From positions 896,001-960,000 of the forward strand of contig CAXXUA010000005.1 of assembly GCA_963663765.2 (NCBI GenBank): a stretch of 64,000 nucleotides of DNA, read 5' to 3'. Source of the DNA: Candidatus Poribacteria bacterium. GTDB lineage: Bacteria; Poribacteria; WGA-4E; WGA-3G. This document shows, piece by piece, positions 1,423-35,724 of this stretch (positions are counted from its first letter, which is position 1; each line of letters begins with the position of its first letter). The translations under genes were made by a program, and so were the position numbers. The notes under the pieces were generated by a model. It saw nothing but the letters and a program-made list of their open reading frames with translations, was not told the DNA's origin and did no database searches.

Positions 1423-2382
1423 ATGGCACAAGACTACGATAATATGGCGAAAAATCTGTTAACAGATTATGCCACCGATATCTCTCAGTTTGTCCTCGGC
1501 GTGACAGACGTTGAAGTGATCGAAAACATTGATACAGAACAGCAAATAATCGTTGGACAACGCACTGATAGCACCAAACGTATTCGTGTAAATAATCAAG
1601 ACGCAATTTTACACATTGAATTGCAGCTTCGTGATAGCACGCAAAAACCGATGTGGGCACGAAACGCAGCTTATCACGGTTACCTTGTTGGTGAACATCA
1701 GTTACCTGTTTATTCTAATGTTATTTATTTTCACCCGAATGCGGGAAGAAACGACACTGGAATTTACAAATATAGTTGGCAAGGTTATGAGTATAAGTTA
1801 CAGTATAAGGTGATCAGACTTTCTAAGATAGAAGGCCAAACGATCTTGGAAAAGCAGACCCCCGGATTGCTACCGTTCCTGCCGCTTATGAAACCCAAAA
1901 CAGGAATGGATACAGAAAAGTGGGTTCAAGATTGTATTGATGCGGCAATTGCTGTCTCAACTGATCAACAGATGCAAAGCGATTTGCTCTGTGCTATATC
2001 TCTCTTTGGAAGTATAGTCCATGATGCTGAACTCTTCAAAAGACTCATATCGGAGGAAATCATGCAAGAATCTAAATATTACCAATTGCTTCGTGAACAA
2101 TTCATTGCACAAGGCATTGAACAAGGCATTGAACAAGGCATTGAAAAAGGCATTGAAAAAGGCATTGAAAAAGGCATTGAACAAGGCATTGAAAAAGGGG
2201 CAAGGAATACTACAATTAGACACATTTTAGCATTGCTTGAAAGCAAATTTTCTGAAGATGCTGTCAGAAACATATCTGCCAAAGTTGAAAGTATAGATGA
2301 TTTACAACGATTGGAAGAGCTGCTTATTACCGCATCAAAGGTGCAAAATCTTGATACTTTCCTAAATATGCTGGAAATATAA
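1423..2382 (+). CDS. Rpn/YhgA-like recombination-promoting nuclease (PD-(D/E)XK) with GIE(Q/K) linker and DUF4351-like C-terminal domain
   Basis: N-terminal YD..K, RTD...HIELQ nuclease core, LLPFLPLM, ESKYYQ, 12-bp GIEQ/GIEK repeats; internal GGAGG-N5-ATG at 2062. Confidence 0.85.
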   Translation: MAQDYDNMAKNLLTDYATDISQFVLGVTDVEVIENIDTEQQIIVGQRTDSTKRIRVNNQDAILHIELQLRDSTQKPMWARNAAYHGYLVGEHQLPVYSNVIYFHPNAGRNDTGIYKYSWQGYEYKLQYKVIRLSKIEGQTILEKQTPGLLPFLPLMKPKTGMDTEKWVQDCIDAAIAVSTDQQMQSDLLCAISLFGSIVHDAELFKRLISEEIMQESKYYQLLREQFIAQGIEQGIEQGIEKGIEKGIEKGIEQGIEKGARNTTIRHILALLESKFSEDAVRNISAKVESIDDLQRLEELLITASKVQNLDTFLNMLEI

Positions 2383-2398
2383 CAATCTGTTATAAAAC

Positions 2399-2499
2399 TA
2401 CAGCGTATCTCATAAATGCGATTTTGTCCAAATTCACAGGATCGTGTGTCTGGTAATCGGGGTGAGGAACCCCTCCTACCATTTATGAGATAGGTTGTA
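2399..2499. mobile_element. MITE family G (about 101 bp) containing a GTAG REP-like hairpin
   Basis: TIRs tacagcgtatctcataaat / atttatgagataggttgta; related inverted copy at 35494-35595. Confidence 0.7.
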
Positions 2500-2549
2500 T
2501 CGTTCTCAGTAAAGAACCATGAACAATCTATGTGAGCGCGCAGGAAATC

Positions 2550-2846
2550 ATGCAAGAATCTAAATATTACCAACTGCTCCGTGAACAATTCATTGCACAA
2601 GGCATTGAACAAGGCATTGAACAAGGCATTGAACAAGGCATTGCACAAGGCATTGAACAAGGGGCAAGGAATACTACAATTAGACACATTTTAGCATTGC
2701 TTGAAAGCAAATTTTCCGAAGATGCTGTCAGAAACATATCTGCCAAAGTTGAAAGTATAGATGATTTACAACGATTGGAAGAACTACACTCCGCAGCATC
2801 AAATGTACAAAATCTTGATACTTTCCTAAATATACTGGATGTGTAA
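2550..2846 (+). CDS. Stand-alone copy of the Rpn C-terminal domain (98 aa, putative RpnS-type antitoxin)
   Basis: Near-identical to 2062-2382; homology starts at the RBS and internal ATG (AGGAAATC-ATG); two fewer 12-bp repeats and a diverged tail. Confidence 0.7.
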   Translation: MQESKYYQLLREQFIAQGIEQGIEQGIEQGIAQGIEQGARNTTIRHILALLESKFSEDAVRNISAKVESIDDLQRLEELHSAASNVQNLDTFLNILDV

Positions 2847-35164: not shown

Positions 35165-35724
35165 GGTAGACGAGCTTTGTATGCGCGCTGTTTGGACTTG
35201 ATGTGCAAGCGCGCTTACAAAGCACACCTACCAGTGTGGGTTAGATAGAATTACCTAATTTATTTATTAAACTTCATACGGGACTAAATATGAAATCAAC
35301 TCTTGAGAAAACTAAGAAAACATCTGTAATTGTGAAGCAATACATTACAAATAGTCATTTAGCACAAGTCGTTTTATTTGGTAGGAGGAACTCCTGGTCG
35401 CGACTGTTTTGAAACATGGTGTCCATACGGTCTCGACCAAGTGGCCGCTCCTACCTGTGCAAGTGTGTAATTAATTCCATAATTTACCATAATTACAACC
35501 AATCTCATAAATCGTAGCAGGTTTTTCTGACTTCGATTTACCGTACACGCGATTCGGTGAATTTGGACAAAATTACATTTATGAGATTCGCTGTATAAAC
35601 ATCCATCAGGTGTGTAAAGTTCTCGGTATTAACCGTTCTTTCTTCTGTAGGAGGAACATCTTGGGCGATCCTATAGAAGAAGTATAATTCATGAACAAAT
35701 ATTTACCAAAATATTTACACACCC
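35165..35724. mobile_element. Cluster of REP doublets and MITEs (REP pairs near 35165-35233 and 35381-35455; family G 35494-35595; A-like shell 35608-35724)
   Basis: GTAG...CTAC hairpin pairs and TIRs shared with other copies in the window. Confidence 0.65.

Follow-up and report, generated by a model that had tools for sequence, protein, structure and literature searches.

A gene for a long protein resembling the Rpn nucleases (open reading frame 1, ORF1) and a small downstream gene that repeats its 3′ part (ORF2) lie one behind the other near the start of a 64,000-nucleotide stretch of DNA from Candidatus Poribacteria bacterium (assembly GCA_963663765.2, contig CAXXUA010000005.1, positions 896,001 to 960,000 of the forward strand; hereafter the window, numbered from its first letter). 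ORF1 occupies 1423-2382 on the + strand, encodes 319 amino acids (aa) and has 39 matches in its own genome. According to the alignment of 11 paralogues, its first 213 residues (1423-2061) make up an N-terminal PD-(D/E)XK-like domain (the N-domain), and at the end of this domain the frame contains a Shine-Dalgarno motif, GGAGG (2052-2056), placed 5 nucleotides (nt) 5′ of an in-frame ATG at 2062, the codon of M214. The internal ORF that begins there (2062-2382, + strand) would give a putative RpnS-type small protein of 106 aa, corresponding to the C-terminal domain of ORF1 (the C-domain), in which seven 12-nt repeats encoding GIE(Q/K) (2113-2196) start at residue 18. A spacer of 167 nt follows (2383-2549), with a palindromic repeat element of about 101 nt, similar to miniature inverted-repeat transposable elements (MITEs), inserted at 2399-2499. 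Homology to ORF1 resumes at 2540-2544 (+ strand), where the sequence GCAGG, one mismatch away from GGAGG, is the weakened Shine-Dalgarno motif of ORF2. ORF2 itself (2550-2846, + strand) is a stand-alone RpnS-like gene of 98 aa with five repeats (2601-2660) and a tail reading LHSAASNV..ILDV; an alternative in-frame GTG at 2532 would extend its product to 104 aa.

The DNA homology between the two copies runs from 8-11 nt 5′ of the ATG to about 2 bases past the stop codon (TAACA). Seven GIE(Q/K) units in ORF1 versus five in ORF2 amount to a 24-nt indel, and the closest match to ORF2 in the genome outside the locus, a paralogue on contig C11 (83%), has two. Between ORF2 and the C-part of ORF1, 88 of 98 aa are identical, including the first 17 residues of helix 1; the 21 aligned nucleotide differences (dN/dS, the ratio of non-synonymous to synonymous change, 0.30; dS 0.17) fall mostly in the last helix (LLITASKV..MLEI in ORF1 versus LHSAASNV..ILDV in ORF2), and ten of them form one patch at 2807-2819 of ORF2 (+ strand; LHSA versus LLIT). 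An earlier reading of the letters alone (the sequence-only reading) had described the internal ATG at 2062 with GGAGG 5 nt upstream and its 106-aa product, and every coordinate was correct; it had also described ORF2 as a stand-alone copy of exactly this segment, with homology beginning at the ribosome-binding site, five rather than seven repeats and a diverged last helix, all of which the DNA alignment bears out.

This arrangement corresponds to a design that is already in print. Zhong et al. (2023; PNAS, PMC10400941) describe how E. coli rpn genes use an internal start to make a small protein, RpnS. This protein, a bundle of three helices whose long first helix mediates dimerisation, binds and blocks the toxic nuclease RpnL. 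The first helix contains four-residue repeats, variable in number, beginning 8-20 residues after the methionine, and one repeat added to either partner abolishes the counteraction in E. coli RpnC. Some loci carry a second RpnS copy as a separate downstream gene (RpnSs): ypaA/rpnE_Ss behind rpnE, whose protein was detected, and rpnC_Ss behind rpnC. According to the same source each of these copies stems, in a separate event, from the gene upstream of it, some carry the annotation DUF4351, and a copy can disappear through deletion or when the N-domain becomes fused to the rpnSs region. Because ORF1 and ORF2 match this description in each of its points, the gene with its small downstream copy is not a new design: the long protein begins with a domain of the PD-(D/E)XK type, an internal Shine-Dalgarno motif with an ATG at the domain boundary would give a small helical C-terminal protein, the 12-nt (4-aa) repeats vary in number and their start at residue 18 falls within the published range, and a separate small downstream ORF is most similar to the C-part of its own upstream gene, by which ORF2 is of the RpnSs type; signs of fusion and exchange between N-domains and downstream copies, described below, complete the likeness.

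Internal start signal

We found 18 places with an N-domain and 32 with a C-domain in the genome. All 18 fused paralogues have GGAGG at positions -10 to -6 relative to the internal start codon, read in frame as NNG-GAG-GNN (five bases lie between the motif and the start codon), and the start codon at the boundary is ATG in 17 of them and GTG in one, where the protein has a valine at that position. The residue before the glutamate (position -4) varies among S, L, T, M and P, yet its codon always ends in G; the motif is thus kept by way of codons that are rare in this genome (TCG, 6.8% of serine codons; ACG, 16% of threonine; CCG, 20.5% of proline; GAG, 24.8% of glutamate). In the genome background, only 25 of 17,305 internal in-frame ATGs of long ORFs have GGAGG at exactly this distance, so the motif is more than chance would give. 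The 3′ end of the 16S rRNA (...CACCTCCTT) contains the complementary CCUCC anti-Shine-Dalgarno sequence.

M214 is nearly invariant in the alignment. Among orthologues in other species, GGAGG is found in L039, L040, L044, L046 and L049, and GGCGG in L041. In addition, a database search for small homologues gave 492 matches at E<=0.001 among 3,111 candidates scored, and all 12 stand-alone homologues that were aligned begin at the methionine equivalent to M214. Since all 18 fused paralogues keep the spacing of GGAGG through rare codons, an RpnS-type internal start in ORF1, as proposed in the sequence-only reading, is well supported at the level of sequence, and the conservation is a nucleotide-level constraint on a Shine-Dalgarno site inside a coding frame, as one would expect of an RpnS-type initiation site. 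Such an invariant GGAGG, encoded through rare codons, could serve as a signature for predicting internal starts in organisms where ribosome profiling is impossible.

Family relationships of the two domains

The 11 paralogous N-domains share the invariant residues D49, H64, E66 and Q68 (D...hHxExQ). A profile of 212 positions built from them was searched against 1.84 billion cluster representatives and matched 2,749 at E<=0.001, including 747 at E<=1e-10; a word-indexed search returned 1,991 proteins at E<=0.001 (7,999 candidates scored). Among the 120 matches listed, none carries a Pfam domain, and the few that are named are called "hypothetical protein" and belong to Candidatus Poribacteria. 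From the profile search we then took 20 long (274-319 aa), weaker-scoring matches, selected among 150 listed and hence a non-random sample, as possible intermediates; their E-values lie between 1e-37 and 1e-22 and they span almost the whole of the 212 positions. Of these 20, five exceed the cut-off of PF04754 (Transposase_31, YhgA-like; 24.5-33.2 bits versus 21), two more score just below it, and two exceed the cut-off of DUF4351. Because five intermediates found by the N-domain profile pass the PF04754 cut-off, we place ORF1, by a remote and transitive sequence link, in a divergent branch of the Rpn/YhgA-like PD-(D/E)XK family (PF04754, TIGR01784, COG5464), which supports the Rpn-like identity that the sequence-only reading had assumed.

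The predicted structure and the C-domain are weakly consistent with this placement. An AlphaFold (AF2) model of ORF1 has a mean predicted local distance difference test score (pLDDT) of 82.7 and a predicted template modelling score (pTM) of 0.66. Comparison of its residues 1-150 by VIA-align gave weak matches to PD-(D/E)XK nucleases, namely 2vld_B (Z 5.9, root-mean-square deviation 3.0, 98 residues aligned), 1xmx_A (Z 5.5), 2ixs_B (Z 5.2) and 8bao_B (Z 5.0), all with Z below 6, a range that may reflect a common arrangement only. The C-domain of ORF1 is also found on the two bona fide PF04754 genes of the genome; outside the repeats this likeness is weak (30% identity over 44 residues, E 0.005 in a single comparison). 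Matches of the repeats to Yae1_N, FliH and a "putative invertase" model (Pfam, NCBIfam, PADLOC) were low-complexity matches, which we treated as repeat artefacts.

In the C-part of the ORF1 model, helices are predicted at residues 218-239 and 248-275, with low confidence across the repeats; the small protein appears in it as a long helix and three short ones (278-289, 294-306 and 310-318). Structural matches to residues 245-319 reach a Z of 8.5 and are helical bundles of a generic kind. We also predicted the complex of ORF2 with ORF1. Its interaction prediction score from aligned errors (ipSAE) is 0.65, versus 0.00 for the best of three controls; the mark used is reached by 116 of 157 solved complexes and by 2 of 215 mismatched pairs. 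Contacts are at least 93% concordant among the three runs, the partner has a pLDDT of at least 80, and the predicted interface brings helix 1 of ORF2 (residues 1-46) against residues 220-259 of ORF1, in register. As a prediction this supports pairing of ORF2 with ORF1, with the reservation that the score may reflect memory of the solved RpnA_S dimer and that close cousins of a true partner also pass.

Origin of ORF2 and recurrence of trailing cassettes

The 11 best orthologue loci of ORF1 are not syntenic with the site in the window, and we traced synteny through the methyltransferase gene adjoining ORF2, which 29 of the 31 searched genomes of the genus possess. Of 11 such loci from other genomes, seven are empty sites, in which an amidohydrolase-like gene faces the methyltransferase gene at a distance of 52-266 nt; two are occupied, an rpn-like gene with one C-domain standing right in front of the methyltransferase gene, which at one site is cut by a contig end and at the other (L055) is reduced to the C-domain and the final ~65 aa of the N-domain; and the remaining two (L058, L060) have neither the flanking gene nor rpn and were left unclassified. 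Seen against these loci (L052-L061), the rpn-like unit at 1364-2865 is an insertion polymorphism between the amidohydrolase-like gene and the methyltransferase gene.

In stop codon and 3′ flank the single C-domains at the occupied sites agree with ORF2 and not with ORF1, but their last helix is of the ORF1 type. ORF2 occupies the ancestral position of the C-terminus. The sequences 3′ of the two stop codons are unrelated, so we rejected a simple tandem duplication as the origin of ORF2. Of the 21 sites that distinguish ORF1 from ORF2, the C11 paralogue, whose N-domain is 97% identical to that of ORF1, has the ORF2 base at 14 and the ORF1 base at five, and the G037 orthologue has the ORF1 base at 13 and the ORF2 base at five. 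Similarly, the patch at 2807-2819 is common to ORF2 and the C11 paralogue and absent from the syntenic orthologues. These mosaic patches shared with a paralogue point to exchange of C-termini, and together with the position of ORF2 they are what the published idea of fusion and recombination, as set out by Zhong et al. (2023), predicts. The sequence-only reading had called ORF2 a spare copy and suggested that it might donate a swappable C-terminus: it is not simply a spare, since it keeps the ancestral junction with the methyltransferase gene, whereas a swappable C-terminus fits both the patches shared with C11 and the published remark that rpnSs can fuse to an rpn N-domain.

The survey of related loci for trailing C-terminal copies, which the same reading had proposed as a check, showed that ORF2 is not an isolated case. 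Seven trailing cassettes stand behind full genes at four loci of the genome, and all are intact ORFs. In every one the homology to the head gene begins no more than 24 nt before the internal start codon, so the breakpoints at homologous loci are not random. For example, at C5:1418780-1420413 (L033:1081-2713) an rpn-like gene has three cassettes behind it, arranged head to tail (ORFs 1999-2235, 2240-2476 and 2480-2713 of L033), and each of their ATGs is 3-4 nt past the stop of the frame before it (TAAACCATG or TAAAACCATG). The alleles in this array alternate a-b-a-b, the C-part of the gene itself included, and Tandem Repeats Finder reports a period of 240 in 4 copies as well as a period of 481 in 2 copies with 96% matches. 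The number of repeats differs between gene and cassette in four of the seven pairs; the other three pairs are without repeats and differ in helices 1b-3. We calculated dN/dS for ten pairs (seven of gene and cassette, one of two cassettes, and two involving the C11 paralogue), and nine gave values of 0.13-0.5, including pairs with dS of 0.6-0.9; the exception is a pair of nearly identical cassettes, with 0.8 synonymous versus 8.2 non-synonymous changes.

The ORF1 family is present in 12 of 12 congeneric genomes and rare in other genera of the order. Trailing copies were found at 3 of the 11 best-orthologue loci. In five congeneric genomes we counted 106 places with a C-domain, after dropping 8 rows that matched in the repeats only: 58 in long frames, 44 in frames shorter than 200 aa, and 4 in frames of intermediate length. 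Among the 44 short frames, nineteen trail 13 head genes (out of the 58 long-frame genes), six of these head genes being followed by a pair.

Other copies of the family show related or different arrangements. One congeneric genome (G009, comparatively small with ~4.3 Mb, one contig) has 128 ORF1 matches, many of them in tandem runs. At L032 (C5:202092-203601) a classical PF04754 Rpn gene (E 6e-28) overlaps a downstream frame that encodes its last ~110 residues once more, with 4 repeat units versus 2, so the true Rpn genes of this genome show the same cassette habit. At C4:252778-255329 a full-length rpn-like gene is followed by two 5′-truncated tandem copies (251 and 213 aa) that start inside the N-domain, a partial duplication of another type than the cassettes. 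Two tandem stand-alone C-domain ORFs with 6 to 9 GLEQ repeats lie at C15:455918-456599 with no adjoining N-domain gene, and a 127-aa frame at C5:1812075-1812455, with about nine G(I/V)(K/E)Q repeats and without the helical tail of the Rpn C-domain, was matched via its repeats only. A decayed C-domain copy with 3 stops lies at C5:181906-182169.

Possible role of ORF2

We consider it likely that ORF1 is a gene of the RpnL type with an internal RpnS start and that ORF2 is a copy of the RpnSs type derived by recombination, whose role is more likely that of a variant module than that of a redundant antitoxin. ORF1 would be a divergent DNA nuclease of the Rpn family (YhgA-like, PD-(D/E)XK), toxic if the analogy with E. 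coli holds, and the Shine-Dalgarno motif and ATG at its domain boundary would direct separate synthesis of the 106-aa C-terminal domain, which would pair with the long protein via its long first helix and restrain the nuclease. ORF2 would have arisen by recombination in which the ancestral junction with the methyltransferase gene was kept, the 3′ end of ORF1 came to be differently flanked, and patches were exchanged with a paralogue. It is most likely co-transcribed with ORF1 and translated from its own weakened Shine-Dalgarno motif, which would give a second small protein able to pair with Rpn C-domains, acting as a variant specificity module either in trans or as a donor in recombination. 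Nuclease activity, toxicity, translation, neutralisation and any anti-phage role are presumed here from the E. coli system. Co-transcription is taken as the default because no terminator-like or promoter-like site lies between the two genes; a scan of the spacer (2383-2549) found no terminator-like site and no promoter-like site on the + strand. The promoter scan gave 7 promoter-like sites versus 6.2 expected, with 0 terminators, and is uninformative. Contigs from two RNA libraries cover 1397-1556, 1754-1943, 1908-2083 and 2180-2412 and none covers ORF2-specific sequence, but carry-over of DNA is possible, and neither expression of ORF1 nor silence of ORF2 follows from them.

A number of results weigh against this reading, several of them concerning the family itself. 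Pfam places no family on residues 1-213 of ORF1, even at E<=10, and the NCBIfam Rpn model TIGR01784 reaches it only at residues 245-281, with E 0.0082 and 16 bits versus a cut-off of 52.1. When the N-domain is compared by hhalign with the two PF04754 genes of this genome, the match lacks significance (probability 0.4%, E 0.14), although the non-significant match aligns the invariant ORF1 residues with the D / IEHQS motif of those two proteins. A search of PDB sequences with the N-domain profile gave 0 matches, Foldseek found no match to the whole ORF1 model at E<=0.001, and the nuclease-like structural matches have the low Z-scores given above. For the C-domain, the profile search of PDB sequences did not find RpnA_S and returned leucine-rich-repeat noise only, and none of 28 C-domains (ORF2 and 27 relatives) reaches the DUF4351 model (PF14261). 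With regard to ORF2, the score of the predicted complex is subject to the reservation already stated, the Shine-Dalgarno motif is weakened (GGAGG is kept by 1 of the 7 trailing cassettes), there is no promoter-like site before the gene, and the mismatch in repeat number argues against neutralisation of ORF1.

Some of these points would also be expected if ORF2 were a functionless by-product of recombination, that is, the leftover of a former 3′ end, untranslated and free of selection, whose frame is still open just because of its young age. The GCAGG motif, the MITE-like element that separates ORF2 from ORF1 and the lack of a promoter-like site upstream all agree with this, as does the fairly young age of the copy (only 21 differences, dS 0.17), and at least one C-domain copy elsewhere, that at C5:181906-182169, has indeed decayed. 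However, all seven trailing cassettes are intact, including pairs with dS of 0.6-0.9 and dN/dS of 0.13-0.36; all of them begin no further than 24 nt from the internal start codon, a regularity not expected of random breakpoints; in the C5 array each of the three cassettes starts 3-4 nt past the stop before it, a distance that suits translational coupling; and the equivalent E. coli protein, YpaA/RpnE_Ss, has been detected (Zhong et al. 2023). We regard the by-product explanation as unlikely. That ORF2 is instead a cognate back-up antitoxin, raising the dose of RpnS for ORF1 with gene dosage as its sole role, would explain the identity of 88 of 98 aa and of the first 17 residues of helix 1, and it agrees with the predicted in-register pairing, a pass that may come from likeness to the solved RpnA_S dimer. 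But ORF2 has five repeats against seven in ORF1, and in E. coli RpnC a difference of one repeat was reported to abolish counteraction in both directions; moreover, repeat number differs in four of the seven gene-cassette pairs, which looks systematic, unlike simple dosage. Because of the five repeats versus seven and the E. coli result, ORF2 is probably not a redundant antitoxin for ORF1, its protection against ORF1 itself is doubtful, and we judge dosage as its only role distinctly improbable.

The tandem order could also be an artefact of assembly, in which two strain alleles of one C-terminus, with seven and with five repeats, were joined head to tail across the repeat element. The sequencing runs that hold this stretch come from sponge metagenomes or coded organisms, strain variation in repeat number is typical of Rpn (Zhong et al. 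2023), and short-read contigs break at the 12-nt repeats and at the MITE-like element; no contig of a run from another study bridges the element between the copies (2433-2774), so the link between ORF1 and ORF2 rests on the given assembly. DNA contigs of that run nevertheless join the ORF1-specific 3′ end to the spacer (2289-2433) and the ORF2-specific patch to the methyltransferase gene (2774-2900), each with 0 differences, so that each allele has its own distinct flank, and the depths at the two ends are similar (190.9 and 188.5). In addition, the 50 nt before ORF2 (2500-2549) are unique and are not the end of an N-domain, and the layout of gene plus cassette recurs at three other loci and in congeneric genomes, several of them assembled as a single contig. 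We consider a misassembly very improbable.

We return to the reading of ORF2 as a variant specificity module. Taken further, and as a possibility rather than a probability, the trailing cassettes might form a small library of alternative specificity modules for Rpn nucleases, in which cassette and head gene differ either by their repeat number or by helices 2-3. Recombination in the shared 5′ stretch or in the 12-nt repeats could fuse a cassette to an N-domain, and expressed cassettes could act in trans on other paralogues. If so, fusion of a cassette would switch the oligomerisation code of the toxin and its internally encoded antitoxin in one step, a logic like that of cassette-based variation (silent pilin copies, orphan toxin tips) applied to a defence nuclease.

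Polymorphic toxin loci of the contact-dependent inhibition (CDI) and Rhs types carry orphan cassettes of toxin tip plus immunity gene behind the full gene, with a shared 5′ stretch and divergent distal parts. The trailing Rpn cassettes resemble these in being extra 3′ cassettes with a conserved 5′ stretch, which possibly guides recombination, and with distal divergence. Unlike in CDI and Rhs loci, however, Pfam finds no delivery domain here, the cassette is a single ORF for an oligomerisation/antitoxin domain without a toxin tip and immunity gene, and the toxin part (the N-domain) is the constant part. The orphan immunity cassette of the sequence-only reading thus holds as an analogy only. A likeness also exists to the stand-alone proteins of DUF4351, in which the small helical C-terminal domain of Rpn is a separate gene, some RpnS being equated with DUF4351 in PMC10400941; ORF2 and its 27 relatives differ in missing that model, which only more distant members of the family reach (the two intermediates mentioned above).

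Compared with the E. coli rpn genes, the N-domain subfamily in the window is missed directly by PF04754 and TIGR01784 and its homologues are unnamed or hypothetical; the family is hugely expanded in one genus, up to the 128 matches in the ~4.3 Mb genome; there are arrays of up to three cassettes, with alternating alleles and starts 3-4 nt after the previous stop; and a repeat element lies between ORF1 and ORF2. New here are the unannotated subfamily, expanded in a sponge-associated genus, the cassettes at four loci (one an array of three), the repeat mismatches in four of seven pairs and the mosaic patches. The gene-within-gene design of Rpn with its RpnSs copies is thereby extended to a large unannotated family. 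Two features go further than the cases in print, to the extent that the text of these was covered: the tandem arrays of cassettes and the systematic way in which cassettes differ from their head genes. Apart from Zhong et al. and commentary on it, the papers from 2023 on that a full-text search listed, judged by title and the start of the abstract, give no sign of Rpn cassette arrays, though the supplements of Zhong et al. (Fig. S1B, S3, Dataset S1) may show them. The arrays, repeat mismatches and mosaic patches bear on a question that this paper leaves open, namely how Rpn C-termini diversify and what role the downstream copies have.

An Rfam search of 1300-2950 gave one chance-level match to a miRNA (E 0.069, far under the gathering score). 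The MITE-like element in the spacer is palindromic, with terminal inverted repeats of ~20 nt and a fold energy of -44.0 kcal/mol, and 10 contigs of the genome together carry 51 copies with a length of 85 nt or more, in either orientation. A second copy in the window lies at 35494-35595 on the - strand, and copies adjoin other rpn-like genes as well, for example at C4:123274-123370 and C5:1652279-1652377.

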